64,000 bases of DNA from an uncultured archaeon. GTDB lineage: Archaea > EX4484-52 > JAADEF01. Of the stretch, positions 6,108-57,435 are shown piece by piece (within the stretch, counting starts at the first letter, position 1; every line of letters starts with the position of its first letter). The stretch is taken from contig CAYOWP010000001.1 in the NCBI GenBank assembly GCA_964407715.1, positions 1 through 64,000 on the forward strand. The letters are read 5' to 3'. The notes beneath the pieces are model-generated. The model made no database searches and had not been told where the DNA came from. It was given only the letters and a program-made list of their open reading frames with translations. Made by a program: the position numbers and the translations under genes.

Positions 6108-6223
6108 GGCATTGTCCAATAATCCCTTATTAATAGAATTTTGTTAAGCGGAAAAGTAACCTCTTAAAGAAGCACATCAGAGCAGCAAATCCTGTAGAGC
6201 TAATGCAATTATTGGCCAATGCC
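6108..6223. mobile_element. MITE-like element, copy 1
   Basis: TIRs GGCATTGTCCAATAAT / ATTATTGGCCAATGCC; perfect 9-bp direct flank CAAAGGATA at 6099-6107 and 6224-6232. Confidence 0.85.
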
Positions 6224-6234: not shown

Positions 6235-6672
6235 TATAGGGTTTAGCCTCTTCATCAGGCATCTCACAGCATTCCACTTTAAAGGCCACCATGCTGCACT
6301 ATGCTAAGAAACAAGATATTTTCCCGTTAACCAATTATTTTAAAATAATGGTTAACGGAAGGAAATTCATTTCACACAGCATATTGCGACATGGTGGCCT
6401 TTTTTGAAGGTTAGCTGCTGTCCAACGGGTTTTTATATGTTACCATACTTCAAGACCTTTCGTAATAAGGATTTCTTCCTGTTAACCATATTTTATTTTT
6501 AAGATAACATGGTTAACGGGAGGAAATCGCTATCATAAGCGCATTGCAGCATGCTAACCTCTCCAAAAGGTTAGCTGCTTCTTAACCGCTTTAGAAAGGT
6601 TAGCTGCTTCGATATGCTGAATAATGAGGTTATGTTTTCCGTTAACCATTTACAAAAAACATTAGGGCAGCT
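6235..6672. repeat. Palindromic-unit array (about 3 units)
   Basis: One degenerate unit ending at 6333, then units 6349-6488 and 6510-6648 bounded by TGGTTAAC/GTTAACCA with inner TAACC-N9/10-GGTTAG. Confidence 0.88.
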
Positions 6673-9223: not shown

Positions 9224-9280
9224 AATATCTCCATATTGAAGGCTATTTAAAAAGAAATTAAATTTAAGAAATCTTTTCTT

Positions 9281-10165
9281 TTATTTTCTTTTTCTTCCTA
9301 TTAATATGTCCTTATAGATATGAGGTATTTCTTCCTCTTCTTCAATCATTTTTAACTCCTCAAAATACTTATTCTTTTCCTCTTTTATGATATCAATGTT
9401 AACTTTCATTAGGGTCTCCTTTAGCATTTTTGATGAAATTCCAAGAGGTATTGATACAGAACCTTCCTTTATAACCACATATTTTTCAATTTTTTTGATG
9501 TGATATTTTTCATTTTCACATTCTATACTTATTGCTGTAATAACTTCCTTTTTATTTAGCTCTTCTTTGTTTGATATATTGAGATCTTCAACCTTTTTTG
9601 CTACGGAGGTTTTCTTTTCAACAAACTGAGGAATACATGCAGCAAATATCATTCCGTTTTCTTTTAAAATTTCTGGGAGTAATTTCTCTATTCCCCCAAG
9701 GAAATATCTTCCAGTTTCATAATAATCTTTGACACCTCTAACATATTTATATTTCTCTTCCATATGTGGATTCATTCCTGGAGCAAAAAAGGTAATCAAA
9801 TCATATTTCTCTATCTTTGAAAATTTTATGAGATCTTTATAATTACATTCGCTTACACTCATAGGAATTATTGTAATCTCTATTCTAGGATGTGCGTTTC
9901 TTAGATAATCCTTAGATAATTTTTCTTTTAAATAAAAGAGATATGGAACATAGGGCTCTACACCCACGATATTAACCTTTTTAACTTTTTCTATCTGAGA
10001 GAAATATGAGATAAAGGCATCTAAGTATGGCATATATCCACATCCAAAGTCTAAGACATTTATTTCTTTTCTTTCTCCACCAAACACATCTTGTGGATTT
10101 CCTAAATAATTGATCAGCATTTTATATATAACTTCATTTAATCTTTTTTTATCTTCCCATATCAT
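9281..10165 (-). CDS. Putative class I SAM-dependent methyltransferase
   Basis: VLDFGCG motif I, GVEP and YDLIT. Confidence 0.6.
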   Translation of the reverse strand: MIWEDKKRLNEVIYKMLINYLGNPQDVFGGERKEINVLDFGCGYMPYLDAFISYFSQIEKVKKVNIVGVEPYVPYLFYLKEKLSKDYLRNAHPRIEITIIPMSVSECNYKDLIKFSKIEKYDLITFFAPGMNPHMEEKYKYVRGVKDYYETGRYFLGGIEKLLPEILKENGMIFAACIPQFVEKKTSVAKKVEDLNISNKEELNKKEVITAISIECENEKYHIKKIEKYVVIKEGSVSIPLGISSKMLKETLMKVNIDIIKEEKNKYFEELKMIEEEEEIPHIYKDILIGRKRK

Positions 10166-10226
10166 AAAATTAAGATATCATTATTTTAGTTAGATTTTTA
10201 AATATTTGCATATAGAAAACAAAACT

Positions 10227-10383
10227 GGCATTGTCCAATAATTCTTTATTGTTAAGCGGAAATTTAACGCGCAAATAGCACTTATAGCGGTAATTGCATT
10301 AGCTCTATAAGGTTTGCTACTTTAATGCGCTTCTTTAAGAGCTATTTTTCCGCTTAACAAATAGAAAATTATTGGACAATGCC
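10227..10383. mobile_element. MITE-like element, copy 2 (perfect TIRs, no visible TSD)
   Basis: GGCATTGTCCAATAATT...AATTATTGGACAATGCC with subterminal TTGTTAAGCGGAAA/TTTCCGCTTAACAA. Confidence 0.85.
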
Positions 10384-10494
10384 TAATGGTAGAGATTAAC
10401 AAAAATTTTTTAAATATATTGTGTGAAGATAGATAGTTTAATAGGGATAAATTTAAAAAATTATCTTCAATTATTCTCGCCATGAGGTGGTAAT

Positions 10495-11559
10495 GTGGAA
10501 AAAAAAGAAAAGGTTAAATGTCCTGAATGTGGGGGCACAGACTTTTTTAAGGATGAAACTACAGGGGAGATAATTTGTAAGAAATGCGGTACCATAGTAA
10601 AGGAGGAGAAAATAGTTACATCCCCAGAATGGAGGGCATTTGATGCAACACAACAAGAGAAGAAATCAAGAACAGGATCTCCTATCTCTTTAACAAAGCA
10701 TGATAGAGGTCTAGCAACTGAAATGGGAAAGGGAATAACGGATCTCTTTAAAGTACCTGCTAAAAAGAGAGCCCAGTATTATAGATTGAGAAGATGGAAC
10801 AAGAGATTAACAAAATCAAAGGAAAGGAATCTTTCATACTCCTTATCTGAGTTAGCAAGACAGGTAAGTTATTTAGGTTTACCTAAATCAGTATATGAGA
10901 AGGTTACGAGATTATATGAGAAGGCAGTTGAAATGGGATTGGTTAGAGGAAGATCCATGGAGACAATAATCACAGCATTGATTTATGCAGTGGCAAGAGA
11001 GGAAGGTACTCCTCGTACGCTTAATGAGATGAGCGCGGCTTCTGGAATAGAGAAAAGAGAGATAGGCAGAGCTTATAGATATATAGCAAGAGCTTTGGGT
11101 ATTAGAATATTACCAGCAAAGGCAGAAGATTACATTCCAAGATTTGCATCTCTTTTAGGTTTATCAGGAAGAGTACAGGCAAGGGCAAGGGAAATATTAA
11201 GAAAGACACAAGATGAAGACCTTACATCAGGTAAGGGGCCAACAGGTATTGCATCTGCTGCACTTTATATTGCTGCAGTATTAGAGGGAGAGAGAAGAAC
11301 ACAGCGAGATATTGCGGATGTTGTGGGGGTTACAGAGGTAACCATAAGAAATAGATATAAGGATTTAATAGAAAAATTGGGAATAGAGGAAGAGATTGAG
11401 AAGATAATAGAGGCTGATGAAGAATTAAAAGAAATAAGCAAGAAAGGCAGAAAGAAAAAAAGAAATGATCTCGAGAAAAGAATACTATCTGATGAGATAT
11501 CAGATGAGGAGTTAGAGGAATTGGAAAAGAGATTTAAGGAGTTGGAGGAGAAGGCGTGA
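10495..11559 (+). CDS. tfb: Transcription initiation factor IIB
   Basis: Zn ribbon CPECG...CKKCG, PEWRAF, cyclin repeats with GRS and GKGP, VTIRNRYK. Confidence 0.97.
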   Translation: MEKKEKVKCPECGGTDFFKDETTGEIICKKCGTIVKEEKIVTSPEWRAFDATQQEKKSRTGSPISLTKHDRGLATEMGKGITDLFKVPAKKRAQYYRLRRWNKRLTKSKERNLSYSLSELARQVSYLGLPKSVYEKVTRLYEKAVEMGLVRGRSMETIITALIYAVAREEGTPRTLNEMSAASGIEKREIGRAYRYIARALGIRILPAKAEDYIPRFASLLGLSGRVQARAREILRKTQDEDLTSGKGPTGIASAALYIAAVLEGERRTQRDIADVVGVTEVTIRNRYKDLIEKLGIEEEIEKIIEADEELKEISKKGRKKKRNDLEKRILSDEISDEELEELEKRFKELEEKA

Positions 11560-11598
11560 GAATAACAAATAAATATTCTACCCATCCAAATATATTTT

Positions 11599-13899
11599 AT
11601 GGTTGTATTTGAAAAGGGAAAAAAGAGCTCAGAGGAGAGTAGGAAAGAATCCATTGTTTCTTATGATAAGGATACAAGAACTATAATAATTGATGCAAGA
11701 ACTAGCATTTATCCTCCTTCTATAGAGGATTATGAAATTTGGATGTCAACTGCTATAGATGCTTTGCTTCAATATGAGGATGCTCAAACTATTGTAATAA
11801 GGCAATCACGGGATTTTGTATATGACAGTCAACAAGTAGAGCTTCTTAGGGAGATTGCCCATATCATAAAAAGATTTGTTAAAACAGAAAAGATAATATC
11901 GATTAACAAGCTCACTCCATACAAGGATGAAGATATTAGAGATAGAGTGGCATTTGTCCAAAGAATCCTTTTGAGAGAGTTGAGAACACATCCTTTAAAG
12001 GCATATATTGATTTGGAGAGAGAAATAGTAAAATATGAGGCATATGCTAAAACAGAAAAGGATGCAAAAAAGAGGTATAGCTATGAATACTATCTTGCAA
12101 ATGCTCTACTTCCTCTAAAAAAGGCATTACAACAAACAAAGCTTGTAGAATCTGTTAAAAGCAAATTAATAGGATATAAAGGCGAGCGTGATATATACAG
12201 GGAGATTTTCTATCCTCTCATAAGGCCAAATTTTATGATAACAAGATACATGCTTTTACCTCCAAAAAACGCAGAGAAAATAAGGGAATATAAGTTGAAA
12301 GATGCGAAGGTTGAGATTTATAGATTAAGAGACAAGGCAATGTATCATTATCATCTCATTCCAGATGAGTTCAATTTAGATGAAAAAAAATATGAGATAT
12401 TGGAAACTGCAAGGACATTTCTTTCTCAATATAAGCCAAAACAAAGTGATTTTGCAATGCCTGAGAGGATGAGAGAGGTATTCTATAACATTGGAAGGGA
12501 TCTAATAATAGAGATCGCGGACAACAAAAAGATTTCACTATCCTCAAAGGATATTGATTTCCTCGCAAATATCTTGGTAAGATATACTGCTGGCTATGGC
12601 ATATTAGAGGTTTTTCTTGAGGATGAAAATGTGCAAGATTTCTTCATAAATGCACCAATAGGCATTACTCCAATTTTTATAAATCATGCAGAATATGGAG
12701 AGTGCCAAACCAATATTATTCCAAGTAGGGAAGATGCAGATGTATGGGCAACACGTTTCAGAATAGAATCTGGGAGACCATTAGATGAGAGCTCTCCTGT
12801 GCTGGATACTGAGATTCTTCTAAAATATGCTCGAGCAAGAGTAGCTGCTGTTACACGCAATCTTTCACCTGATGGATTGTCATTTGCGTTTAGAAGACAT
12901 CGAGACAGACCTTGGACATTACCTTTGTTTATAAAATACAAGATGCTTAATCCTCTTGCGGCAGGGTTAATTAGCTTTATAGTTGATGGTGCTCGTACGT
13001 TATTGATCGCAGGCACGAGAGGTACTGGAAAAACATCGCTATTAGGTAGTGTAATGGTGGAGATTCCAAGAAAGCACAGGATAGTTACTGTAGAAGATAC
13101 ATTAGAATTGCCAGTAGAGTATCTTGTGAGATTGGGATACAATATTGAGCGACTAAAAGCAAGATCAGCATTAAGCAATGTTGAGAATGAAATGCCAGCA
13201 GATGAGGCAATTAGAACATCCTTAAGGCTGGGAGATAGTTGTTTGATTGTGGGAGAGGTTAGAAGTGTGGAGGCTAAGGCATTATATGAGAGCATGAGAA
13301 TTGGAGCTTTAGCAAATGTGGTTGCTGGAACTATACATGGCGATTCTCCATATGGTGTTTTTGATAGGGTAGTGAATGATTTAGAGGTTCCAAGGACAAG
13401 TTTTAAGGCTACTGATATTATAATAATAGCAAATCGATTAAGATCAGCGGATGGATTGAGATATTTTAGGAGAGTTTCTGAGATAACAGAGGTAAGAAAG
13501 GACTGGGAAGAGGATCCAATGAGGGAGAAAGGGTTTGTTAAATTGATGGAATATAATGCAAAAAAAGACGCTTTAGAGCCAACGGATACGCTTTTAAATG
13601 GCGAGAGCTTTATCCTTAACCAGATTATGCGAAAAATAAAAGATTTTAAGGATAATTGGGAGTTGGTATGGGAGAATATATTGCTTAGAGGGAAGATGAA
13701 GCAATATCTTGTGGAGATTAGCGAGAGATATAACAAACCAGAGATTTTGGAAGCTGATTTTGTGGTTATGGCAAATGAGAAGTTCCATGTAATTACAGGA
13801 GAAGTCATAGAAGATTTTGGAGGACTTGATCATGAAAGAATATTTGCGTTATGGAAGAATTGGGTGGATAATGCTGTGAGAGAATATGGAAAACAATAG
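11599..13899 (+). CDS. Type IV pilus assembly ATPase (VirB11/TadA/ArlI-like)
   Basis: Walker A GTRGTGKT, VEDTLEL, Walker B IVGEVR, GTIHG. Confidence 0.92.
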   Translation: MVVFEKGKKSSEESRKESIVSYDKDTRTIIIDARTSIYPPSIEDYEIWMSTAIDALLQYEDAQTIVIRQSRDFVYDSQQVELLREIAHIIKRFVKTEKIISINKLTPYKDEDIRDRVAFVQRILLRELRTHPLKAYIDLEREIVKYEAYAKTEKDAKKRYSYEYYLANALLPLKKALQQTKLVESVKSKLIGYKGERDIYREIFYPLIRPNFMITRYMLLPPKNAEKIREYKLKDAKVEIYRLRDKAMYHYHLIPDEFNLDEKKYEILETARTFLSQYKPKQSDFAMPERMREVFYNIGRDLIIEIADNKKISLSSKDIDFLANILVRYTAGYGILEVFLEDENVQDFFINAPIGITPIFINHAEYGECQTNIIPSREDADVWATRFRIESGRPLDESSPVLDTEILLKYARARVAAVTRNLSPDGLSFAFRRHRDRPWTLPLFIKYKMLNPLAAGLISFIVDGARTLLIAGTRGTGKTSLLGSVMVEIPRKHRIVTVEDTLELPVEYLVRLGYNIERLKARSALSNVENEMPADEAIRTSLRLGDSCLIVGEVRSVEAKALYESMRIGALANVVAGTIHGDSPYGVFDRVVNDLEVPRTSFKATDIIIIANRLRSADGLRYFRRVSEITEVRKDWEEDPMREKGFVKLMEYNAKKDALEPTDTLLNGESFILNQIMRKIKDFKDNWELVWENILLRGKMKQYLVEISERYNKPEILEADFVVMANEKFHVITGEVIEDFGGLDHERIFALWKNWVDNAVREYGKQ

Positions 13900-15991
13900 T
13901 ATTAGAGAGGAATATGTATCATCATTGGAAGATATCACATCTAAGGAGTATAGAGAATTCAAGAAAACCATAGATGAGAGCAGAAAAAGAAGACATTGGT
14001 ATGAGAAATTAGCAGGTTATGTTAGTGCTATTGATATTGAATTATCTCCAAAGGACAGAGAAAAAATAGAGAGAGGGATAAGATTCTCAGGATTGAATAT
14101 AAAGCCCAGAGACGTGTTTTTAATACCTTCTGCTTTCTTCTTAGTTTCCTTGCTCCTTCAAATAATTTTTTACATAGCAATCAAGGTTCTTGAGAGCAAA
14201 CTTAGTGAACCTCAAAATCTCATTGGGAAAATTCTATATCCAGGAAATTGGCCCGTTATTATAAAATTTCTCCCTATTTTAATAGGAGTAATAGGAGCAT
14301 ATTTTCTTTATAAATATCCTTTTATGATATCCACACGTAACAGATTGAGATATGGAGAGGAATTGTTGATGGCTATAGTGTATATGATAGTTTATCTTAG
14401 AACCTCTGGGAACTTAGAAGGTGCTTTAAGATATGCTGCTCAGAATACAAGAGGAAAAGTCTCTCAGGATCTCAATGAGCTTTTATGGAAGATTGAGATG
14501 AGAAGATATCTAAGTGCCTATGAAGCTCTCAATGATTATGCGAACTTATGGAAGGATTATATGAAGGAGTTCTCTCAGGCAATATATCTAATCAACGAAG
14601 CTATGATGGAGCCAGAGACCTCGCGTAGAGACATGCTTTTGGAGAAGGCATTGGGCGTTGTTTTGGATTCCTATAATGAGAAGATGAAGGCATATTCTCG
14701 TGCTTTGGAGTTGCCTATTCAGGTTATACATGCATTTGGTATTATTTTGCCAGTGTTGGGTATGGTTGTATTGCCTATCTTGACAATCTTGCTGAGTGAT
14801 TCAATAAAAAACTTATCATTTTATTTAATATCTTTCTATGATATTGTTCTTCCTATTGTTCTTATGTTCTTTATTAATAACACCTTAGAGAAGAGACCTC
14901 CTACTTTTGGGAGAGTAGATGTTAGCAGGCATCCATCACTGCCAAAAAAAGGGTATTTCAGAATGTGCTATAAAGAAAAAACCATTGACATTAAAATATC
15001 TCATGTGCTTTATGGCGCATTATTTTTCTTTCTCTTACCTTCTTCCATATTTTTCTTATATAATTATTATCTTGATGGCAATTCCTCTTTATCAATTACA
15101 TTTGCCTTGCTTTGTGTGATTTCTTTTGCGATAATGATCATGCTACATGGATTCTTAACGAGTGCAAATAGGTTATCTTTAAGAAAGGAGATAGAGGAGA
15201 TAGAGAAGGAATTTGAGGAGGCTTTGTTTGCATTAGGAAATTCACTTGCAGGAGGAGTGCCTGTAGAAAAAGGACTTGTTAGAGCGGTATCAGATATAGG
15301 AAATCTCAAAATCAAAAACTTGTTTGAGGATATCCTTAGGAATATGCATCAGTTTAGTTTGACTTTCAAAGGTGCTTTGTTCCATCCGCGGTATGGTGTC
15401 ATTAAATATTATCCCTCAGAGCTCATTAAGAATATTTTGAATATCTTATCATCTGTTATTGAGAAAGGAACTGAAAATGCTGCTTTGGCAATGATTACCA
15501 TATCAAGATATTTGAGAGACATAAGAACAACACAAGAAAAAATAGAGGATCTCCTAAGCTCTACGCTTTCAAGTATGAGATTTAATGCTTATGTTCTCAT
15601 ACCTATTGTTGGAGGTGTTATTGTTGCAGTAAGCAAATTAGTTTTGATTTTACTTCTTAAGATGTCAGGTGTTTATTCTGCTTTGTCATCCCAATTATCT
15701 GCAGAGGAGGCACAGAGCTTAATGGAAACAGGTTTTGTGTTTGATATTGAGCAAGCCATACCTTCCTCAATAACCCTCCTTATTATTGGAATATACATTG
15801 TTGAGATCTTATATATTCTTGGTATATTTATCTCGCGTACCCAATATGGATATGATGAGATAATGGAAAAACACGAGATTTGGAAGTTAACCTTGATTGG
15901 TACCTCTATGTTTGTAGCATCATATTTAGTTATTAATGGTATGTTCTCTGGTGTAATAGACAGCATCATTGATAGCTTAAGTAATGTATAA
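13886..15991 (+). CDS. Pilus membrane platform protein (TadC/ArlJ-like, two T2SSF domains)
   Basis: Multi-TM protein overlapping the ATPase stop, with two T2SSF-like segments (SGNLEGAL, GGVPVEKGL). Confidence 0.8.
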   Translation: MENNSIREEYVSSLEDITSKEYREFKKTIDESRKRRHWYEKLAGYVSAIDIELSPKDREKIERGIRFSGLNIKPRDVFLIPSAFFLVSLLLQIIFYIAIKVLESKLSEPQNLIGKILYPGNWPVIIKFLPILIGVIGAYFLYKYPFMISTRNRLRYGEELLMAIVYMIVYLRTSGNLEGALRYAAQNTRGKVSQDLNELLWKIEMRRYLSAYEALNDYANLWKDYMKEFSQAIYLINEAMMEPETSRRDMLLEKALGVVLDSYNEKMKAYSRALELPIQVIHAFGIILPVLGMVVLPILTILLSDSIKNLSFYLISFYDIVLPIVLMFFINNTLEKRPPTFGRVDVSRHPSLPKKGYFRMCYKEKTIDIKISHVLYGALFFFLLPSSIFFLYNYYLDGNSSLSITFALLCVISFAIMIMLHGFLTSANRLSLRKEIEEIEKEFEEALFALGNSLAGGVPVEKGLVRAVSDIGNLKIKNLFEDILRNMHQFSLTFKGALFHPRYGVIKYYPSELIKNILNILSSVIEKGTENAALAMITISRYLRDIRTTQEKIEDLLSSTLSSMRFNAYVLIPIVGGVIVAVSKLVLILLLKMSGVYSALSSQLSAEEAQSLMETGFVFDIEQAIPSSITLLIIGIYIVEILYILGIFISRTQYGYDEIMEKHEIWKLTLIGTSMFVASYLVINGMFSGVIDSIIDSLSNV

Positions 15992-16032
15992 AGAGTAAGT
16001 AGAAAAAATAAAGAATGCTTCAAAAAAGAATT

Positions 16033-17009
16033 TGGTTAACGGGAAGCATAGCCTTTTCATTTTGCGTATGGAAGCAGATAACCCTTAAAAAAGGTTAGAA
16101 TGCTATAATATGCTTGTGATAGGATATCCCTCCCGTTAACCATGTTTTATTTTAAAATAAAACATGGTTAACGGGAAGCATGGCCATTATCTCCACCATC
16201 TTGGAGCAGGTAACCCTTAAAAAAGGTTAGCATGCTGTGATGTGCTTTGGGAAAAGGAATTTCTCGCGTTAACCAAATTAAGAATGGTTAAGGGGAAGCA
16301 TAGCCATATCCAGAGCATATCAGAGCAGCTAACCATTGATAGAGGTTAGCATGCTGTAATATGATTGTGAGAGGGATTTCCTCCCGTTAACCATTTTTTA
16401 AAATAACTGGTTAAGTGGAAGCATAACCATTCATTTTGCGTATCACAGCATCTAACCTCTTCAAGAGGTTAGAGAGTACCTAACCTTTTGTAAAGGGTTA
16501 GCATGCTGCAATGTGGTTTGATAAGGGATTTCTTCCCGTTAACCATTTCATTTGATAAATAAAAATTGGTTAACTGGAAGCATACTTTCTTAAGAAAGCA
16601 CATTGGAGCAGCTAACCTTTTCAAGAGGTTACCATGCTGCAATGTGGTTGTGAAAGGAATTTCCTCCCGTTAACCATATTTTATCTTAAAATAACTGGTT
16701 AAGGGGAAGCATAGCCATTCATTCGGCGTATCACAGCATCTAACCTTTTCAAGAGGTTAGAGAGCATCTAACCTTTTAAAATGGTTACCATGCTGCAATG
16801 TGGTTTGATAAGAGTTTTCCCCTTAACCAGTTATTTTAAAAAATGGTTAACGGGAAGCGTAGCCTCTCAAGAGAGCATATCAAAGCAGCTAACTTTTCTA
16901 AGCGGTTGAGAAGCACCTATCCTTTTGAAGTGGTTACAATGCTGTGAGGTGGTTTGAAAAAGCATTTTTCCGTTAACCAAATTTTCAAAATACATTATTG
17001 GGCAAAATC
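16033..17009. repeat. Palindromic-unit array (7 tandem units) ending in a degenerate MITE terminus
   Basis: Units 16033-16142, 16165-16275, 16285-16393, 16408-16545, 16567-16676, 16696-16829 and 16844-16979; ATTATTGGGCAAAATC at 16994-17009. Confidence 0.95.
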
Positions 17010-17018
17010 GATGAGATA

Positions 17019-17612
17019 TCATGATAGCATGTTTTCTATATCTCTTTCGGTTTTTATTTTTATTTTTTTAAGAGTTTTTTCTTCATTAAAGGCATCTATC
17101 AGGTATACTCTTACGTTATAATCAATCTCCTTGAATCTGTTTTTTATTATCTCAAAGCTTGTTAATATGTTGATCAAGGAAGGGTTTTGGGTTTCATAAT
17201 AAGCATAGGAAAAAATTGTCTTTAGGAATAGCTTGTCAGTAAAGTGCTTGTTATATTCATATGAGGAAAATATCTTATCAAATAATTGTAGATGCTCTCT
17301 AAACAAACTCCTATAGTTTTTTATTTGCGAGATGAGTATGAATTTAAATTTTTCTCTATGCTTTTCAATCCATCTGAGTAGAGAGGTATCAAGATTTATA
17401 TATAGCTCTTCATATAGATTTCTCTTTAAAAGTACTCTATAATCATATCCCACGCTTTCCTCTGATGCTAAACCTTTAAATATTAGCTTTGTTTTCTCAT
17501 ATAAATATGAGGTCTCTGATGGAGAGACAGAGAAGATTTTTTTAAACTTCTCTTCAAGTGAGGACCAAGAGATAAGAAGTTCTGATGTCATTATAATGTA
17601 TGGTTTACTCAT
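17019..17612 (-). CDS. Hypothetical protein
   Basis: 197-aa ORF preceded by a GGGAGG SD-like motif. Confidence 0.65.
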   Translation of the reverse strand: MSKPYIIMTSELLISWSSLEEKFKKIFSVSPSETSYLYEKTKLIFKGLASEESVGYDYRVLLKRNLYEELYINLDTSLLRWIEKHREKFKFILISQIKNYRSLFREHLQLFDKIFSSYEYNKHFTDKLFLKTIFSYAYYETQNPSLINILTSFEIIKNRFKEIDYNVRVYLIDAFNEEKTLKKIKIKTERDIENMLS

Positions 17613-17669
17613 CTTATCCTCCCTTTGTGAAATTAAATTTAATATATTTTATCTCAATAAATATTATTT

Positions 17670-20600
17670 ATGTTAAACAAGTATAAATATTTAAATATTG
17701 TTTTTTATCTAATAGCGCTCTTTTTGTTATTTAAGTTTTCTTATTCTACTCCTGTTGTGATATCTGATGTTGAGGATTTCTATGATCCACTTCCATATAA
17801 TGATGGAAACATAACTATAACCGCGGTTATTAACAGAATAGATGCTGGGGAAAAGGAGGTATGGGTCTCCATACTTTCTCCGGTAGAAGAGAACCTTTCT
17901 TGGATAAAAAAGGAATTTATTGATAGCCAAACAAATAAATACTACTTTACATATAATCCTTCGCAGATAGGAACATATTTATATAAGGTATATGCTATTA
18001 ACACAAATAATGAGACATCAGAATCCCAAACACATACATTTGAAAGTGCTAAGTTCCCATATTTTGAGAGCATAGCCTACAACTCTTCTGTTAAATGGGA
18101 CAATGGAAGTGTTGAGTTCTATATTACAATGAGAAGATGGGTGGATTATAGAAATAATTCCATGATAGAATACAATGTTTCTTCAGTCATTGTTATGATT
18201 AAGGAACCTGAGATAGCAAATGTTTCTTTAACAAAGATTTCTGAGGAAGGGAATTTATCGCTATGGTATGGAAGTTTTGATCCTTCAATAATATCGCTCT
18301 ATAAATATGGAGTTTTTGATCCCATTTATAAATTTCAAGTTTTTTCAAATGATACCTATGGAAATGTATCAGTTAGTGAGGAGATGAGTTTTGTTTCAGA
18401 GGGATATTATCCAAAGATACTTGGTTCTTATATCTCTCATAAAGGAATATTGAGCGTAGGTGAAAACATAACAATATATGCAATAATAAACGATACCACA
18501 AATGCAACAAATTATTCCCCAAACATAAACAGCACAAAAATATATCTACTTAAACCAGATTTAAGTTTGATGATTTATAACATGACAAAGATAAATGATT
18601 CATATTATTATCTTAATTTTACTATAGATATTGAGGGAGATTATTTCTATAAAATCTTTGTTAGTGATGAGGAAGGAAATGAGGTGGAATCAGGATATTT
18701 TGGTTTTTCCTCTTCTCCACATATATATGATATTGTAAATATTAGTGTAAAGGTTGCCCCAAGTTGTCAGGCAAGTATTTTTCTATTGCCTGATGAGGAT
18801 AAGTTATTGGTTAATACTACTGTGATTTGGCTGAGCATATTTGAAAATCTTGGTAATGTGCCTCTTAACGAAACAACCAACATCTCAGTTGAAAAGGATG
18901 TCATATATCCAGGAGAGGAAAAGTTTGTTATTCTACCTCCAAATATTGTAGCGTATGCTCGTGATAAAGAGGAAGAGGTTGATCCTTTAGATGACACCTT
19001 TTTCTTCTTGATATGGTACACATACGGCTTACCTCTTGGGAACTATACAGCAAGAACATATTCCACATACTATGCAAATGTATCTTATGAAGGAGGATAT
19101 TTTACATGTAATGGTACTGTCAATGATACCGTGCATTTTGAATTGGTAGAAGCTATAGGTGAAACAACACCTTCTCCTATTCTTGTTATTCGTGAGATGC
19201 CGGAGCAAATATATCAGGATCCAGATTGTATAAACGATTCACAATCCTGTATAACAACAAAGGTTAGGTTGGTCTTATTTAATAGAGGAGACAAAGTTGC
19301 AGAGAACATAACATTAAAAGAGAGAATTTATTTGTATGATTGCGCATATTCCAATTCATCTCTTTGCGAGAAAATCTCACTTAAATGTGTAAATTCATCC
19401 CAGTATTCTTGTGCTGTTACCACAAATAAATCAACAGGTGAGATTGGATCATTGCAGTTTAATATGTCTGAGTCTCTTTCTCCAAGAGATTATGTAATTT
19501 TGGAGTATGAGCTTACACCACCTCCATATTTAGTGGTGTATAATGATTCGGTATATAAGTTTGAGGCAAAAGGTTCTCATAAATGTGAGGGAGATAAAAA
19601 GAAGTATGAGATTTCCGAGAATGACTTACATTATAACAAGGAGGAATACAAATTAATGCATCTTTCGCCTTTGCCTTCATTTATGTTTGATTTGACTGTT
19701 CTCTCATCTAATACAACTGAGAAAAGAAGGACATTCTCAGCAGAAAAAGACGAGGAATTTTTGATTTCAGCAGATTATATTTCCTCAATTTCCACATCAA
19801 ATTGGACCATAAACATATCATTCCCAGAGGTGTTTATAATAAAATCATGTTCATTTGTAGATGGTGTTCAATGTGAATGTCGCGTGGATAATGCGAGCAA
19901 TATTGTATATTGTGATGGCTCTTCTCTGATTTCAGAGAATGACAAGGTAGAGTTCAAAGTGACGGCTCGAACAAATATATATTCTGAATATATTCTTCCA
20001 GCATATTTCAACGATTCTATTTATATGGCAGATGAAGATTTCTTACCAGGTTTATTTATGATAAGCATACCGAAAACTGAGGTTGAAGTTCCTACTCCTC
20101 AGCCAGTTCCACAGCCAACTCCTCAGCCACAACCTGAGCCACAACCTGAAACTGGACCTGAGATTAGTGAATATCATCTTCCAAAGGTTGAGATAGTTTT
20201 GAGACCACTAAATGATACATATGTGGTATATCAAGGAGATACTTTTCCAACATATTTTGAGGTAGAGAATATAGGTAACTCAACAGCCAATAATATCACA
20301 ATCGAAGCGATACTTCCATCAGCATTATGGAATCAAAGCAAAGCATATATAGATGTTCTTAATCCTGGAGAAAAGGTTAATAGAACTTTGATGTTCTCTG
20401 TTGATGAGAATGTTGCTCCTGGTATATATGTGATACCAGTTAAGGCAATGATTGGAGATTCCATAGGGGATATAGCGTATATCACCATAAAAGTTTTATT
20501 TGCTAAGAAATTGGCTAAGATGAAGATTATTGAGATGGCACAGGAGATTGAGATCAGAGAGGATAGCAATCTTACTGTGCCTATTTTGATAAAAAACATA

Positions 20601-21050
20601 GGAAGAAAGGTGCTACATAATGTGAGTGTGAGAATAGAGAATGTGGAAGAGTGCATAGAAAAATATTCTTCTTCACGAGAAACATTAAATCTTAATGAGT
20701 CAAAGACAATATTCCTATACCTAAAATCAAAGCCTGTAAAATCAAAGGAATGCAAAGCAATAGTGATTGCATATTCTGATGAAGGAGCATATGATTTTAT
20801 GCCTGTAATCATTAAGGTATATCCAAAGCCTCCTTTATTGGCTTTGAGACGAAATCTTACGCCAATAATCTCTTTATTGTGGACATTAATATTTATACTT
20901 TATGCAGTAATAAGAAAGAGAAAGGCTATGCGTGGTGAGAGACCGAAAAGCAAGGTTCCAAGATTAATACTTTATCTTTTAATGTTAGGAGAATTATTAA
21001 TAATTATTTATGTAATTTTATGGTTAATTGGATTGGTGAGTTTGTTATGA
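17670..21050 (+). CDS. Large cell-surface protein with Ig-like/CARDB-type domains
   Basis: Signal peptide, many N-x-S/T sequons, ENIGN/KNIGR Ig-like strands, Cys-rich middle, Pro-Gln linker and two C-terminal TM helices. Confidence 0.8.
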   Translation: MLNKYKYLNIVFYLIALFLLFKFSYSTPVVISDVEDFYDPLPYNDGNITITAVINRIDAGEKEVWVSILSPVEENLSWIKKEFIDSQTNKYYFTYNPSQIGTYLYKVYAINTNNETSESQTHTFESAKFPYFESIAYNSSVKWDNGSVEFYITMRRWVDYRNNSMIEYNVSSVIVMIKEPEIANVSLTKISEEGNLSLWYGSFDPSIISLYKYGVFDPIYKFQVFSNDTYGNVSVSEEMSFVSEGYYPKILGSYISHKGILSVGENITIYAIINDTTNATNYSPNINSTKIYLLKPDLSLMIYNMTKINDSYYYLNFTIDIEGDYFYKIFVSDEEGNEVESGYFGFSSSPHIYDIVNISVKVAPSCQASIFLLPDEDKLLVNTTVIWLSIFENLGNVPLNETTNISVEKDVIYPGEEKFVILPPNIVAYARDKEEEVDPLDDTFFFLIWYTYGLPLGNYTARTYSTYYANVSYEGGYFTCNGTVNDTVHFELVEAIGETTPSPILVIREMPEQIYQDPDCINDSQSCITTKVRLVLFNRGDKVAENITLKERIYLYDCAYSNSSLCEKISLKCVNSSQYSCAVTTNKSTGEIGSLQFNMSESLSPRDYVILEYELTPPPYLVVYNDSVYKFEAKGSHKCEGDKKKYEISENDLHYNKEEYKLMHLSPLPSFMFDLTVLSSNTTEKRRTFSAEKDEEFLISADYISSISTSNWTINISFPEVFIIKSCSFVDGVQCECRVDNASNIVYCDGSSLISENDKVEFKVTARTNIYSEYILPAYFNDSIYMADEDFLPGLFMISIPKTEVEVPTPQPVPQPTPQPQPEPQPETGPEISEYHLPKVEIVLRPLNDTYVVYQGDTFPTYFEVENIGNSTANNITIEAILPSALWNQSKAYIDVLNPGEKVNRTLMFSVDENVAPGIYVIPVKAMIGDSIGDIAYITIKVLFAKKLAKMKIIEMAQEIEIREDSNLTVPILIKNIGRKVLHNVSVRIENVEECIEKYSSSRETLNLNESKTIFLYLKSKPVKSKECKAIVIAYSDEGAYDFMPVIIKVYPKPPLLALRRNLTPIISLLWTLIFILYAVIRKRKAMRGERPKSKVPRLILYLLMLGELLIIIYVILWLIGLVSLL
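20090..20160 (+). repeat. Pro/Gln/Glu/Thr-rich coding linker repeat
   Basis: Encodes PTPQPVPQPTPQPQPEPQPETGP. Confidence 0.8.
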
Positions 21051-21802
21051 GAAGATATGTAGATTTAATGATTTGTCCTGAAAGTAAGGATGCTCTGAGA
21101 GATATGCTCGCATTTATTGACAAAATAAAACTTGAGGTAATGGGGATTTGCGTTAATGAAGAGAGCGCTAAGGAAATGATCGAATACATGGTTAATGAGT
21201 CATTAATTGATAGATTCATAATTTTTTATATGATAAAGGCAGAGGAAATAGAGGAGTTCAGGGAGAAAAAAAAGAAATTTATAAATCAAATGAAAAAATA
21301 TAAAGGTGTTAAGGCATTGATCTTAGAATCTCGTAATTATAAAGTTTTGAGATATGCCGTTGATAAAAGAGAAGTTGATGCTTTATACAATCTTCCGCTA
21401 TCCTTTAAGATGTTTGGAGTTGATCAAGTGATTATAAAGTTATGCTCTGAGAAAAATATTGCATTGATTTTTGATTTTAATTCTTTCAAAAGGATGAGTA
21501 AAAATGAGAGAGTTGTTTATCTTAGAAATATGAGAAAGATATTGCAGATTGCCAAAAAATATGATACTATGAGCATAGCCGTATCTTGCGCTAGAAATGT
21601 AATGGAAATAAAGCATCCAAGGGATTTGGCATCTTTCTTCTATATCGTATACAGAAACCTCGAGTTTTCCCTTAAGTCCACATCAGATAATCCTTTACAG
21701 TTTTCTGATTTTATTAAAAAGTTAAATAATTCTAAGAGAGTATTACCAGGGCTATACATAATTGAGGATGATAGCAATGTTAAAGCCGAGTTTAAGAGAT
21801 AA
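21047..21802 (+). CDS. rnp3: RNase P subunit Rpp30
   Basis: RYAVDKREVD, VDQVIIKL, SCARNVMEIKHPRDL; adjacent to Pop5. Confidence 0.8.
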   Translation: MRRYVDLMICPESKDALRDMLAFIDKIKLEVMGICVNEESAKEMIEYMVNESLIDRFIIFYMIKAEEIEEFREKKKKFINQMKKYKGVKALILESRNYKVLRYAVDKREVDALYNLPLSFKMFGVDQVIIKLCSEKNIALIFDFNSFKRMSKNERVVYLRNMRKILQIAKKYDTMSIAVSCARNVMEIKHPRDLASFFYIVYRNLEFSLKSTSDNPLQFSDFIKKLNNSKRVLPGLYIIEDDSNVKAEFKR

Positions 21803-22136
21803 AAAAAGGTACATTATTGTGAAAATTTATGCGAAAGAGAAAGATGAAGAGATAAATATAGAGGACATTATCTCTGCTGTTTGGAAAAAGGCATATGAGT
21901 ATGGTGGTTATGCTTATGTCTCCCTAAGCAATATGAATGTAATAAAGGATTTATATTTTAAGGAGAAGCATATTTTTGTGATTAGTGTCATGCCAAAATA
22001 TGTGGAAGATTTAAGGTTTATATTGATGCAGGTTGATAAGATAAAGTCCTGGGATGTTACATTACATGTTCTTGGTGTGAGTGGCACAATAAAATCTGCT
22101 AAGGAGAAATATATAAATAAGGAGGAAGACATATGA
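21777..22136 (+). CDS. rnp2: RNase P subunit Pop5/Rpp14
   Basis: PSLRDKKRYI N-terminus and VLGVSGTIKSA C-terminus. Confidence 0.9.
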   Translation: MLKPSLRDKKRYIIVKIYAKEKDEEINIEDIISAVWKKAYEYGGYAYVSLSNMNVIKDLYFKEKHIFVISVMPKYVEDLRFILMQVDKIKSWDVTLHVLGVSGTIKSAKEKYINKEEDI

Positions 22137-23038
22137 TATTTCATTTTGGAAATTTGGAATCTCTATATTTTGGAATTATGTTGCTTATCGCTATTATTTT
22201 TTTATTGGTTGTTAGTTATTGTGATTTAAAAACATCTCTGATTGATATTAGAGCAGTTATTTTCTTTGATTGTTTAGCTTTAATTTGCCATGGTTTGTTT
22301 GCGTTCCTTCTTCATGAATATAAATATATTCTTTTTGGTATCTCCTCTCTTGCAATTTTTCTTTTTATGGGGTATCTGTTGTATTTCTTTTCTAAATGGG
22401 GAGAGGGAGATGCCATTGTTTTGGGAAGCATATACTTCATATATCCTTTTCCTTATTTTGTTCCGTTGCACTTTGTTATTATTAACAAGGTCATATATTA
22501 TTGGTATGTGCTATTTTTTAATATTGCCATTTTTGGTGTATTTTATTCATTGATGTATGCTTTTATATTTTCCTTAAGAAATAGAGAATTCTATGCGCAT
22601 CTTAAGAAAGAGCTTTCTTTAAAACATGCTTTTCTTGTGTTTCTTCTTGGAAGTTGTTTGGCTTTCGTGATGTATTTTTTTGTTGAATCATCTTATTATG
22701 TGATTGCTTTTCCGCTAATTTTATTTATATCTTACTTTTTTTATGTGTTTGCTAAGTTATCAGATGAGATATTATTTACAAAAAAAATAAAACTAAAAGA
22801 TGTGAAAGAGGGAGATACTGTTCTTGGAACATTTAAAAAAGCAAATTTTGAATGCAAGAGATTAGATGCTATTAGTAAAGAAGAGATTGATGCCCTTATA
22901 AAGGCATATGGGCCAAATAAGGTAGTTGAGGTAAAGGATATGGTTAGATATATTCCCTCTTTTCTTTTTGGATTCATCTTTACTGTTCTCTTTGGGGATG
23001 CAATACTCTATTATCTTTCCTCCTTAATTATCGTTTAA
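22133..23038 (+). CDS. Prepilin peptidase (A24 family, PibD/EppA-like)
   Basis: Catalytic aspartates in SYCDLK and WGEGD; C-terminal VKEGD...RYIPSF. Confidence 0.85.
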   Translation: MIFHFGNLESLYFGIMLLIAIIFLLVVSYCDLKTSLIDIRAVIFFDCLALICHGLFAFLLHEYKYILFGISSLAIFLFMGYLLYFFSKWGEGDAIVLGSIYFIYPFPYFVPLHFVIINKVIYYWYVLFFNIAIFGVFYSLMYAFIFSLRNREFYAHLKKELSLKHAFLVFLLGSCLAFVMYFFVESSYYVIAFPLILFISYFFYVFAKLSDEILFTKKIKLKDVKEGDTVLGTFKKANFECKRLDAISKEEIDALIKAYGPNKVVEVKDMVRYIPSFLFGFIFTVLFGDAILYYLSSLIIV

Positions 23039-23071
23039 TTTAAAATATTTTTGAAATAAAAATACTAAATT

Positions 23072-23752
23072 ATGATATCAAGCTTAAGGATTGTATCTAA
23101 TAGAAAAGGATCAAATCCAGGAGGTTTTGCATATCTTAATGATCTCTATGTTTATGTGAAATACTCTTTTATTGGAGAAAATCTTACAGGTACTCCTTTA
23201 AAGGTTGAGCATCAACCAATCTATGAGTACATTACAGGGGAAATCTTGAAATTTTATGGGTTTAAAGTACCGAAGAGATATGTTATTGAGGGAGAGAGAA
23301 TAAAGATAATTAATGAGATTAACAATCCTGATTTCTATAAAAAGAGACCTTATTATTTATTATCTGTATATGTTAAATACGAGCCTAATGGCAAATTTGA
23401 TATATCTCAAAAATGTATGCTAGATAAATTGGGGATGTGTGATATTATAGGAAAGGGAGATAATTATGGCATGATTGAGGAAGGATCCTTTATAATTATT
23501 GATTGCGGTTGTTCTTTTGTTGAGAGTGTAAACGGAAGAATGAGAGTTAAAGAGGAATATAAAAGAGCATATAATGAACAAAAAATAAAAATTAAATCAA
23601 GAAAGATAAAAAAGGAAATCTCAAAAATTATTAAATATATAGGGGATATCACAATAGATACCTATTTCTCAAACATTCCAATAAATAAGATTTTGAACAA
23701 AGACGAAATTGAATTTATCAAATCCTACTATATATGGAAAATGTGCCAATAA
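23072..23752 (+). CDS. Hypothetical protein, possibly atypical kinase fold (HipA/PI3-4K-like)
   Basis: GSNPGG Gly-loop, YVKY, DNY and IIDCG. Confidence 0.55.
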   Translation: MISSLRIVSNRKGSNPGGFAYLNDLYVYVKYSFIGENLTGTPLKVEHQPIYEYITGEILKFYGFKVPKRYVIEGERIKIINEINNPDFYKKRPYYLLSVYVKYEPNGKFDISQKCMLDKLGMCDIIGKGDNYGMIEEGSFIIIDCGCSFVESVNGRMRVKEEYKRAYNEQKIKIKSRKIKKEISKIIKYIGDITIDTYFSNIPINKILNKDEIEFIKSYYIWKMCQ

Positions 23753-24367
23753 TCTTGATAAAGAGTTTGTTAACGCAATAAGAATTTCTCCACCTATCAA
23801 CCTCTTTATAATGTTACCATGCTACGATATGCTCTCTAGAGGAGGTATATTTTGCGTTAACTAAATTTTTATTTAAAAAATCTGGTTAACGCAAGAAATC
23901 GCTTTCCAATGCACATAGCAGCATGCTAACCGCTTTCAATGGTTAGCTGCTTCAATATGTTTTCTTGATGATATGCAGTTCTCCTTAACCAAATTTTCAA
24001 AAATAAAAAATGGTTAACGGGAAGCATAACCATCACTAAAAGGTTTGCAGCATTCTAACCTCTATCAATGGTTAGCTGCTGTGATGTGCTGAATGAATAG
24101 GTTATGCTTCCCCTTAACCATTTTAAAAAATAATAAGATATGGTTAACGCGAGGAAATCCCTCTCATAAAAGGTTTGCAGCATGCTAACCTCTTGAAAAG
24201 GTTAGCTGCTTCCATACGCAAAATGAAAAGGTTATTTTTCCCCTTAACCATTTTATTTTATTTAAAAAATCTGGTTAACGCGAGGAAATCGCTTTTACAA
24301 CCATATTGCTTTAAAATGGGTTAGCATGCTCCAAGGTGCTTGTGGAAGCGATTTTCTTCCGTAACCA
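23742..24367. repeat. Palindromic-unit array (5 units, mostly reverse orientation)
   Basis: Degenerate terminus TGTGCCAATAAT, then units starting near 23768, 23883, 24011, 24141 and 24272. Confidence 0.93.
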
Positions 24368-24380
24368 ATTAACAAATTCA

Positions 24381-24469
24381 GGCATTGTCCAATAATTCTT
24401 TATTGTTAAGCGGAAATTTAACGCGCAAATAGCACTTTTTTTGTTAATAGAGAATTATCGGACAATGCC
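24381..24469. mobile_element. MITE-like element, copy 3 (internally deleted, 89 bp)
   Basis: TIRs GGCATTGTCCAATAAT / ATTATCGGACAATGCC; flanks ACAAATTCA and ACCAATTCA (8/9 match). Confidence 0.85.
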
Positions 24470-24516
24470 ACCAATTCAGTTAATTAAAATGTATTTTTAA
24501 ATTTTACTTTTTTATA

Positions 24517-28671: not shown

Positions 28672-28832
28672 AGTATGCTCAATAATTCTTTATGGTTAAG
28701 CGGAAAGTATACCTTATCAATAGCACATCAAAGCAGCCAACACTCTTGAAAAAGGTTAGCATACTGCAAAACTTTAGGTAAAGATATGATTTCTGTTAAC
28801 CAAATTTTTAAAATACGTTATTGGACAAAACT
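28672..28832. repeat. Single palindromic unit with degenerate MITE termini
   Basis: AGTATGCTCAATAATTCTTTATGGTTAAGCGG...GGTTAGCATACTG...GTTAACCA...TTATTGGACAAAACT. Confidence 0.8.
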
Positions 28833-32532: not shown

Positions 32533-32814
32533 TGGATAGGTTATGTTTTCCGTTAACCATTTTTAAAATAATTGGTTAACGGGAAGCATAACCTATCCAA
32601 AGCATATTGCAGCAAGGTATCCTTTCAAAAAGGTTAGCTGCTTCAGTCTGCTGGATAAAAGGGTTATGTTTTCCGTTAACCAAATTTTTATTTTAATGAA
32701 AAATGGTTAACGGGAGGAAATCGCTTTCTCAAGGCACATTAGAGCATGCTAACCCTCTACAAAAGGTTAGCTACTTCAATACGCCAAATGAAAGGGTTAT
32801 ACTTCCCGTTAACC
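32533..32814. repeat. Palindromic-unit array (2 units plus a partial)
   Basis: Units 32573-32682 and 32704-32814, with a partial arm upstream. Confidence 0.9.
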
Positions 32815-35373: not shown

Positions 35374-35495
35374 AGTATTGAGCAGCAAACTTTGTTAACG
35401 GGAAGCATAGCTTTATACAAAGGGTTAACTGCTCTCATACACTTCTTTGAGAGGTTATGTTTCCGCTTAACAATAAAGAATTATTGGACAATGCC
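35374..35495. mobile_element. MITE-like element, copy 5
   Basis: Perfect right TIR ATTATTGGACAATGCC and degenerate left end; direct flank TGACCTTAT at 35365-35373 and 35496-35504. Confidence 0.83.
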
Positions 35496-38362: not shown

Positions 38363-38862
38363 TGGTTAACAGGAAAAATCCATTTTACAACCACATTGCA
38401 GCGTGATAACCTTTTTATTTTTGGTTATCTGCTTTGCAATGAGCTTTTTAGCAGATCCTGTTTCCTGTTAACCATTTTTGTTTTGGTTAACGGGAAACAT
38501 ACCTTATCGAGAAACCACATTACAGCATCTAACCATTCTAAAGAGGTTAGCATGCTGTAATTTGGCTTTGAAAAGCGATCTCTTCCCGTTAACCATTTTT
38601 GTTTTGGTTAACAGGAAACATACCTTATCGAGAAACCACATTACAGCAGCTAACCCTTTAAAGCGGTTAGCATGCTGTAATGTGCCTCGGAAAAGTGATT
38701 CTCTCCCGTTAACCAATTTTTATTATTTTTTAAATTGGTTAACTGGAAACATACCTTTTTCATTTGAGGTATTAGAGCAGCTAACCTTTCACTTGGGTTA
38801 GCATGCCGCAAGAGCTTTATGATAGCGATTTCTTCCCGTTAACCATTTATCTGCGTTAACCA
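38363..38862. repeat. Palindromic-unit array (4 units)
   Basis: Units start near 38363, 38484, 38605 and 38736; the second and third share a near-identical left half. Confidence 0.93.
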
Positions 38863-47709: not shown

Positions 47710-47980
47710 AAATATTCTTCTGTTAACCAAAAATAAAAAATGGTTAAAGGGAAGCATAGCCTATTCATTTGGCATGTTGAAGCAACTAACCTTTCATAGA
47801 GGTTAGCATGCTGTAATGTGCCTTGTAGAAGGGATATTCTTCCGTTAACCTTTTATTTTAAATAAAAAATGGTTGGGTGAAACATAACTTCTTAAGAGAG
47901 TATGTAACAGCAGCTAACCTGCTTAGAAAGGTTAGCTGTCTTGATATTCTGAATGAAGGGAGTAGCCTTTTCGTTAACCT
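47710..47980. repeat. Palindromic-unit array (2 units plus a partial)
   Basis: Units at about 47741-47850 and 47870-47979. Confidence 0.88.
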
Positions 47981-57167: not shown

Positions 57168-57435
57168 TGGTTAACGAGAAAGCATCTTTTCCAAGAGGTT
57201 TAGAGCATGCTAACCATTGAAAAAGGTTATGTGCTGCAAGTCGGTTTTTGATATTGGGCATCTTCCCATTAACCAAATTTTCTAATAAAAAACAATTGTT
57301 AACAGGAAAATATCGATATTCTCCAGTGAATGCGGCATGCTAACCTTTTGATAAGGCTAGGTGCTGTAAATGTGCCATTTGAATGGCTATACTTTCCCTT
57401 AACCAATTTTAAATAAAAATTGTTAACGAGAAATA
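57168..57435. repeat. Palindromic-unit array (2 diverged units plus a partial)
   Basis: TGGTTAAC...GCATGCTAACC-N9-GG(T/C)TA...TTAACCA twice, between convergent atpD and hjc. Confidence 0.85.

Follow-up and report, generated by a model that had tools for sequence, protein, structure and literature searches.

Palindromic repeat families and the locus compared

MITEs (miniature inverted-repeat transposable elements) are defined as carrying terminal inverted repeats of at least 10-15 bp, and DPANN archaea are rich in them, with 146 and 105 per Mb in the two top archaeal genomes, as given in PMC11602168. Repetitive extragenic palindromes (REPs) are described as 20-40 bp long with a GTAG or CGTC tag in PMC3733652, and RU-1 as 127 bp long in PMC2759123. 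Here we describe a 32-nt hairpin at positions 16324-16355 of the window (by which we mean the whole 64,000-nt stretch analysed, the first 64 kb of contig C1, CAYOWP010000001.1), together with the repeat unit of which it forms the centre. The archaeal assembly comprises 0.9 Mb at 32% G+C and is 92% complete, and DNA of the host is present in hydrothermal-vent metagenomes; none of the public runs listed as containing it is of RNA. The original prediction had taken the hairpin, with its one-base bulge and 9-nt spacer, for a site recognised by an enzyme or protein, and had pointed to enzymes that act on folded single strands. With moderate confidence, we interpret the hairpin as the core module, conserved in sequence, of a palindromic selfish repeat that is non-coding, specific to this lineage and related to a MITE family of this genome.

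The units resemble MITEs in being small (108-136 nt), non-coding, multicopy, intergenic and palindromic, with terminal inverted blocks and without a transposase of their own, and the cargo of the sister MITE family in this genome is homologous to their inner core. Unlike MITEs, each copy of which is flanked by a target-site duplication (TSD) of 2-10 bp, they show no TSD and form head-to-tail arrays of up to 7 units, and no DDE transposase (PF01609, PF00665) or related autonomous element was found in this assembly; the sister MITE in turn differs from the units in lacking the central hairpin, which is their best-conserved inner feature.

With the REP/BIME/REPIN-RAYT systems the units share short imperfect palindromes in intergenic arrays, abundance in one lineage and a hairpin whose polarity is given by an asymmetry. 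REPs accompany a RAYT (Y1/HUH) gene, whereas no Y1 gene was found in this assembly; moreover, neighbouring units here run head to tail and do not alternate, and the hairpin begins with AGCAG, ends with CATGCT, carries no GTAG/CGTC tag and lies inside a 108-nt unit. The MJRE1-3 elements of Methanocaldococcus jannaschii and the Rickettsia palindromic elements are likewise lineage-specific palindromes of about a hundred bases, in a small archaeal or reduced bacterial genome and with no known enzyme, as far as their descriptions go. The MJRE elements, reportedly treated by Suyama, Lathe and Bork in FEBS Lett in 2005, are said to have coding potential and to lie inside genes, whereas here 911 of 32,750 repeat bases fall inside open reading frames (ORFs) of at least 90 aa and 97% lie outside. 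The ERIC/IRU sequences and the Correia elements of Neisseria, likewise compared by description, are 100-150-bp intergenic imperfect palindromes with size classes set by an internal block; they are bacterial and mostly single copies, and Correia elements have TA duplications, whereas the present units are archaeal and stand in arrays. Searches of the literature gave no paper on this family of repeats, nor any on hairpin repeats in DPANN archaea from vents.

The hairpin is the centre of a repeated palindromic unit

The hairpin reads AGCAG-CTAACC-ATTGATAGA-GGTTAG-C[A]TGCT. Folded as single-stranded DNA (ssDNA), it forms an 11-bp stem made of helices of 7 and 4 bp, with one unpaired A (16351, plus strand) and a 9-nt loop, at -8.8 kcal/mol (z -3.65 against 200 shuffles), so that sequence and fold agree on the one-base bulge that had been claimed. 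Allowing up to three mismatches, the window contains the bulged N9 pattern 15 times, against a mean of 0.00 in 100 dinucleotide-preserving shuffles; the observation is therefore real and far beyond chance. All five spacers quoted in the original prediction were located in the window, two of them being read on the opposite strand. The hairpin, its unit and the array around it are as follows.

16324..16355, plus strand: central hairpin; left arm AGCAG-CTAACC at 16324-16334, spacer ATTGATAGA at 16335-16343, right arm GGTTAG-C-A-TGCT at 16344-16355, bulged A at 16351
16286..16392, plus strand: unit holding the hairpin, 107 nt, with terminal inverted blocks GGTTAAGGGGAAG and CCTCCCGTTAACC; imperfect palindrome throughout
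16033..16980, plus strand: head-to-tail array of 7 units in a single orientation; short units at 16034, 16166, 16286 and 16568, long two-hairpin units at 16409, 16697 and 16845
16409..16544, plus strand: unit of ~136 nt with hairpins at 16452-16472 and 16480-16501

Each unit is bounded by GGTTAACGGGAAG and CTTCCCGTTAACC, and the consensus of the short class, built from 99 units, is a 108-nt imperfect palindrome. Inside these two terminal inverted blocks lie two poorly conserved inner arms of ~26 nt and, at the centre, a module in which two inverted GGTTAGC half-sites flank a T/A-rich loop. These half-sites are similar to the GGTTAAC motif of the termini, and half-sites of one type close the central hairpin as well as the junctions between units. 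Examined as the terminal inverted repeats of a MITE, the outer blocks are 13 nt long and their first 6 positions are 99-100% paired in the 99 units. As ssDNA, unit 16286..16392 folds at -18.1 kcal/mol (z -4.2), and it scores 107.6 bits against covariance model R1.

In the long class, of ~136 nt, a 28-nt module (GCAG-CTAACC-N9-GGTTAG-GAA) occurs twice. In the 25 of 73 long units where both hairpins were recognised, the distance between hairpin starts is 28 nt in 20 and 29 nt in 5. Units of both classes follow one another head to tail, with A+T-rich linkers of 8-21 nt in between. These linkers (for instance at window positions 16144-16164) are themselves A+T-rich palindromes, such as ATGTTTTATTTTAAAATAAAACAT. 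Each junction therefore forms a second type of hairpin, CCCGTTAACC-linker-GGTTAACGGG, which alternates with the central hairpin about every 65 bp. We also considered a permuted unit, with the hairpin arms as its ends and the 9 nt as a shared copy of the target; it was rejected on the grounds that arrays start and end on GGTTAAC termini, and also since the two loops of one long unit differ.

Genome-wide numbers depend on the treatment of one contig, as C9:262-43957 is a 100% identical reverse copy of C8:7161-50856 (43,696 bp), an assembly redundancy which inflates counts by about 5% if kept. C9 was excluded from the copy and array counts, the table of bulge sides, the genome-wide pairing, the unit identities and the nearest-relative pairs; it was included in the flank tests on 191 loci, the flank consensus, the insert columns of the unit alignment, the array-gene context, the ORF overlap and the spacer consensus. 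With C9 dropped, 854,509 bp hold 572 terminal motifs and no fewer than 172 complete units, of which 99 are short and 73 long; this amounts to at least 201 complete units per Mb. A search with nhmmer recovered 360 non-overlapping matches, which fall into 120 arrays and together span 30,863 bp (3.6% of the DNA). For an archaeon below 1 Mb such a density of the family is unusual, and the genome offers a good case for studying how tiny symbiont-type archaea tolerate or use selfish repeats.

The bulged base lies in a constrained block

The orientation of each unit was set from its outer 40-nt arms alone, with the hairpin left out (median difference between strands 29 bits). The short units with a recognisable hairpin, 73 in number, then divide by the sequences flanking the central half-sites on the 5' and 3' arms as follows.

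GCAG/CATG, extra base on the 3' arm: 36 units of 73
CATG/CTGC, the mirror form with the extra base on the 5' arm: 0 units of 73
GCAG/other: 15 units of 73
other/CATG: 13 units of 73
GCAG/CTGC, no extra base: 6 units of 73
other/CTGC: 2 units of 73
other/other: 1 unit of 73

With 36 units carrying the extra base on the 3' arm and none on the 5' arm, the bulge asymmetry recurs and defines orientation, as had been proposed. The extra base is missing from 8 of the 73 units, and the remainder outside the canonical 36 have one flank mutated. Across the 99 aligned short units, 83 have A at the bulge column and 9 have a gap there; the others carry T (5 units), C (1) or G (1).

We compared rates of change in 49 phylogenetically independent pairs of nearest-relative units (median identity 0.76). 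The three stem segments differ at 0.108, 0.166 and 0.122 per site (pooled 0.129) and the two inner arms at 0.334 and 0.339 (pooled 0.337), so that the core changes 2.6-fold more slowly than the arms. The loop, at 0.408, is the fastest segment; the termini differ at 0.148 and 0.118, values that are biased because the termini served to select the units. At the bulge column, 9 of the 49 pairs differ (0.184); this rate is lower than that of the variable arms (P = 0.014) and shows no difference from that of the stem (P = 0.17). The bulge is part of the constrained block and is not singled out inside it. This comparison is the one that the original prediction named as a possible refutation of itself, and its outcome is divided: the bulge is more conserved than the variable arms, while the spacer is the fastest-changing and, per base, the most length-variable segment.

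This quantitative test distinguishes the constrained elements, stem arms and bulge, from the unconstrained ones, namely the length and the sequence of the loop. A polar bulge that is repeated throughout a repeat family should be read in the first place as sequence inherited from a founder. The bulge may be understood as an asymmetry of the founder copy, with AGCAG on the 5' arm and CATGCT on the 3' arm, which all descendants would have inherited; being inherited in this way and lying inside the constrained block, it would mark polarity.

It could be argued that there is no constraint at all, the apparent conservation of the core being an artefact of alignment or mutation in the A+T-rich arms and loop, and the founder sequence simply decaying neutrally. 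Homopolymer runs of A/T in the arms and loop do inflate differences through misalignment and slippage, insert columns of the unit alignment concentrate in the loop and at one T-run, and the choice of units by their termini biases the terminal blocks. However, the central block was not used in selecting units and still shows the low rate given above, some arm columns are well conserved, and the contrast is not simply one of G+C against A+T. We consider an absence of constraint distinctly unlikely.

Spacer length and sequence

The original prediction described the spacer as fixed at 9 nt and variable in sequence; the first description does not survive a count and the second needs amending. Nine nt is found in 46 of the 73 short units, the others having 10 nt (13 units), 8 nt (9), 11 nt (2), 12 nt (2) or 6 nt (1). 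Taken as the spacing of two half-sites, a feature of dimeric sites, the mode is thus 9 nt in 46 of 73 units, with other lengths between 6 and 12 nt in 27. Per base this is the most length-variable segment of the unit, with a variance in length of 0.76 over 9 nt, compared with 0.59 and 0.63 in arms of 43-44 nt, and 19 of 36 nearest-relative pairs have spacers of unequal length. As to sequence, the 110 spacers of nine nt follow a loose consensus, TTTTAAAGA (T81 T67 T77 T52 A45 A63 A85 G66 A56 percent). Nine nt may have been the length of the founder's loop, drifting by insertions and deletions. A reading of the loop as a continuation of the palindrome was rejected, with a unit-specific complementarity of 1.63 pairs observed against 1.86 in the control; the loop's two halves complement each other no better inside one unit than across units.

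Sequence conservation without covariation

Covariation of stem pairs, a check that accompanied the original prediction, was found neither in the window nor genome-wide. For the 17 units of the window, RNAalifold retains no pairs other than the 6 bp at the termini and those of the hairpin, and its covariation term is +0.4. When the full helices are given, 88.2% of cells in these units are paired against 87.9% with shuffled partners (152 of 500 shuffles reach or exceed the observed value), and the covariation score is 0.067 against 0.060, with 97 of 500 shuffles reaching the observed value. In the central helix of the 99 units genome-wide, 85.8% of cells are paired, against 85.8% with shuffled partners. 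Common variants break pairs: pair 45-65 is CG in 48 units, CC in 26, GG in 5 and GC in 3, the terminal pair 7-102 is CG in 45 and GG in 36, and the cells of the central helix include 6 compensated and 155 broken ones. Pairing is fully explained by each arm being conserved as sequence on its own; it is a by-product of this conservation, as expected for copies of a palindromic founder.

These results bear on the reading in which the folded ssDNA hairpin is what is recognised, the extrahelical A setting the strand, and an enzyme resembling the integrase that acts on attC or a Y1/HUH enzyme (IS200/IS605 TnpA, RAYT) multiplies the units. Like integron attC sites and IS200/IS605 hairpins, the present hairpin is imperfect, with an unpaired base on one arm and distinguishable strands; the complementary strand folds nearly as well, at -8.5 kcal/mol with an unpaired T on the other arm, and the bulge is both restricted to one arm (36 units against 0) and as conserved as the stem. 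Unlike those systems, it has a stem conserved as sequence and not as structure, pair-breaking variants are frequent, and the loop departs from 9 nt in 37% of units. Polarity is uniform inside each array and switches between arrays along the window, without the strand bias that insertion into one replication template would presumably leave. The absence of target duplications from the units agrees with elements of the IS200/IS605 type, which are not known to make any, but this is the sole trait in common: here the hairpin is central, terminal inverted blocks are present, and, as described below, no Y1 gene was found. Nothing points to recognition of a folded single strand, and we think this mode of multiplication quite improbable. 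Missing covariation is still compatible with a cis-acting site in an element that copies and decays, so the original inference is weakened rather than refuted.

The same folds could in principle belong to RNA, that is, the units could be transcribed and the hairpin form part of a small RNA, an element of an untranslated region or a terminator. The consensus unit as RNA folds strongly, at -44.2 kcal/mol, and T-runs follow the terminal stem, with 65-87% T at positions +4 to +7 of the 3' flank. However, no unit matches Rfam at gathering score (at E <= 1 only microRNA-like generic hairpins appear, the best with 29.8 bits against a cut-off of 80), covariation is missing, and arrays face 5' ends of genes more often than 3' ends. 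Orientation is also unbiased with respect to neighbouring genes, the co-directional gaps containing 7 arrays in the same sense and 13 in the opposite one. A role in RNA is therefore, in our judgement, very improbable.

Candidate enzymes

The original prediction suggested a search for HUH nucleases and tyrosine recombinases. No HUH gene was detected: at E <= 0.1, PF01797 (Y1/HUH) matches nothing in the assembly, which is 92% complete, while a control search was positive in 7 of 14 reference genomes. For tyrosine recombinases, PF00589 has one match, a protein of 285 aa, which scores 261.2 bits against the XerA equivalog NF040815 (cut-off 220) and falls below the cut-offs of integron-integrase models (200.3 against 265). 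Judged by these model scores, the only tyrosine recombinase in the assembly is the housekeeping XerA. In contrast to integrons, there is accordingly no integron integrase here, nor are there gene cassettes; the units are stacked with no intervening ORFs. Assemblies often miss insertion sequences, and at 92% completeness the absence of these enzymes is unproven.

A search for an autonomous partner gave a similar picture, as none of the pairs of termini lying 350-4000 bp apart encloses a transposase-like gene. One candidate, a terminus-bounded stretch of 3,041 bp seen twice, was rejected; it encodes a glycosyltransferase and a GH57 enzyme, and its second occurrence is an assembly duplicate.

As for the proposal that the core is an enzyme or protein recognition site, the constrained block fits some recognition site, while the folded-strand signal and the enzymes put forward for it did not hold up. 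Recognition by some enzyme or protein is possible, to judge from the pattern of conserved sequence, and should the core turn out to be bound by a protein, this would imply a so far unknown activity that multiplies repeats.

Genomic setting and distribution

Besides the array that holds the hairpin, the window contains the following arrays and single units.

6350..6647, no single strand: two long units, 6350-6487 and 6511-6647; pattern-matching hairpin 6548-6579 on the minus strand
23884..24249, minus strand: array of three short units, hairpins 23920-23951, 24049-24080 and 24179-24210
28694..28801, plus strand: lone short unit between end remnants of the sister MITE family, CAATAATTCTTTAT upstream and TTATTGGACAA downstream
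32574..32814, minus strand: two short units
38364..38844, no single strand: four short units, two of which (38485 and 38606) arose by recent tandem duplication (period 121, 90% matches)
47742..47850, plus strand: short unit, hairpin 47781-47812
57169..57404, minus strand: two short units, hairpins 57204-57235 and 57334-57365

Gene context was determined from crude gene calls (longest ORFs of at least 90 aa). Divergent gene gaps hold 54 of the 116 arrays for which both neighbours were called, compared with 19% of all gene pairs being divergent, and 160 of 242 array sides face gene 5' ends, the 10th percentile of the distance to the start codon being 63 bp.

This setting would fit a reading in which the inverted GGTTA(G/A)C half-sites are bound as double-stranded DNA by a dimeric protein of the host, for instance a regulator or a protein of chromatin, with arrays acting on promoter regions or on chromosome structure. 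Such a reading would also fit arms that are each conserved independently of pairing, a core changing 2.6 times more slowly than the arms in copies otherwise about 65% identical, and a half-site type common to the central hairpin and the unit junctions. On the other hand, the spacing is not fixed (8-12 nt in the centre, 8-21 nt in the junction linkers), enrichment in divergent gaps is equally expected from tolerated insertions, no candidate protein was identified, and the gene calls are crude. Neither the same-genus genome nor 40 others of the order contain the family, so that a host function would have to be very young. On these sequence features, a dimeric host site seems rather unlikely.

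The distribution was examined at several levels. The unit covariance model has matches in 1 of 42 genomes of the order, namely this one, and the terminal 16-mer, allowing one mismatch, has 93 copies in this genome and 0 in 40 relatives of the order, the same-genus genome included. In public collections of genomes, metagenomes and viral contigs, the exact pattern of the central hairpin has 0 matches; a looser pattern has 1 match, in a G+C-rich coding region, and a 17-mer of the terminus has 28 single matches in unrelated bacteria, both of which we read as chance. The repeat family is restricted to one genome among those compared.

Target sites and the sister MITE family

The original prediction equated the spacer in length with the TSD. 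No target-site duplication is seen at these units; the 9-bp duplications are those of a sister family (family 2), found by comparison of the genome with itself. This family has 17-bp ends, GGCATTGTCCAATAATT, of which there are 81 in the genome, and comprises 38 paired elements of 89-390 bp, with 7 perfect duplications of 9 bp, 1 of 10 bp and several more that are near-perfect. Its core is homologous to the hairpin units but is without the right hairpin arm. Copies in the window lie at 6108-6223, 10227-10383, 24381-24469, 28833-28991, 35377-35495 and 46242-46375, and three of them are described here.

10227..10383, no strand assigned: 157-bp MITE, its 17-bp ends GGCATTGTCCAATAATT enclosing a related core that is palindromic, TGTTAAGCGGAAA...TTTCCGCTTAACA, without the CTAACC-N9-GGTTAG hairpin
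6108..6223, no strand assigned: element of 116 bp with a perfect 9-bp duplication, CAAAGGATA
35377..35495, no strand assigned: half-length element, with the direct repeat TGACCTTATA at 35367-35376 and 35496-35505

The 9-nt TSD of the original prediction stems from this sister MITE, and on present evidence the agreement between modal loop length and TSD length is a coincidence.

The flanks of the hairpin units share a family consensus of AAAwwT before and AwwTTTT after the unit. The sequence GGTTAACC was considered as the empty target of a TTAA-type insertion and was dropped, having only 9 copies, none of which stands in the flank context of the family.

Family-2 copies of about 250 bp are 80-93% identical, and are for this reason younger than the hairpin units. 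Ends of family 2 were also sought in relatives, where single matches with one mismatch occur in genomes G003 and G022, beside ordinary genes and with no transposase. In G003, a genome of the same taxonomic family, a 326-aa ORF without a Pfam family (C94, 248-1228) lies 200 bp from such a one-mismatch end, with no second end seen; its position there is probably a coincidence.

Multiplication of the units

Adjacent units have a mean identity of 0.708 and reach at least 85% identity in 1 of 35 adjacent pairs, and the nearest relative lies in the same array for 12 of the 73 units that have an array partner. Local tandem duplication exists but is minor.

We propose that the core and termini are kept because they would be required in cis for the repeat's own multiplication, and that they would be read as sequence on each arm by a copying protein or a recombination process. 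Three routes of multiplication may be envisaged. Units could have travelled as cargo of the sister MITE, moved by a transposase that makes 9-bp duplications; 40 of 120 arrays touch a family-2 end. Slippage or unequal exchange between the many GGTTA/TAACC motifs could have added modules, and would explain the in-register doubling of 28 nt. Occasional local tandem duplication may have contributed as a third route.

Several observations weigh against a selfish repeat of this kind. No transposase of any family searched (PF01797, PF01609, PF00665; PF07282 gives only sub-threshold zinc-ribbon matches) occurs in the assembly, which leaves the mobility of the units themselves putative. Target-site duplications are missing from the units: at 191 loci, 3.32 flank letters match for k = 9, compared with 3.13 in re-paired flanks, and a wider scan of the same loci (k = 4-12, offsets 0-3) gives at best a z of 3.2, with 2.89 matching letters against 2.69 in the control. 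The remaining 80 of 120 arrays have no family-2 end nearby, so that hitch-hiking cannot account for most arrays. The units are old and diverged, with a mean identity of 0.644 between loci. No empty site was found, since the genome from the same genus (G001) is ~70% identical and not syntenic at the gap, where the orthologue of the upstream gene is followed by a gap leading to a different neighbour; contigs of four public DNA runs over 5500-25400 break at the repeats, bridge no array and show no presence/absence variants. Finally, neutral decay would give uniform change, and the slow core therefore needs either constraint on a master copy or selection after insertion, the latter of which would favour a host function.

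A variant of the proposal would make the 28-nt module the cis site of an unrecognised, lineage-specific enzyme or DNA-binding protein, neither HUH nor tyrosine recombinase, that copies or maintains the module without recourse to the sister MITE's ends. Such a protein would account for the slow core in old copies, the in-register doubling and the single polarity of arrays; we regard this variant as unlikely.

Further features of the window and assembly

Three further features were noted outside the repeat family. Window positions 1-190 contain the 3' end of an archaeal small-subunit (16S) rRNA (181.8 bits, model positions 1287-1478), clipped by the start of the window. Two stretches of 564 bp, at window positions 26355-26918 and 27434-27997, are 99.1% identical. 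Stretches of 0.6-1.6 kb that are 80-93% identical between contigs occur at C2:111155-113072, C14:18515-21389, C10:34968-36023, C3:37246-39507 and C8:5662-7939, and are probably paralogous genes or a further class of repeat.

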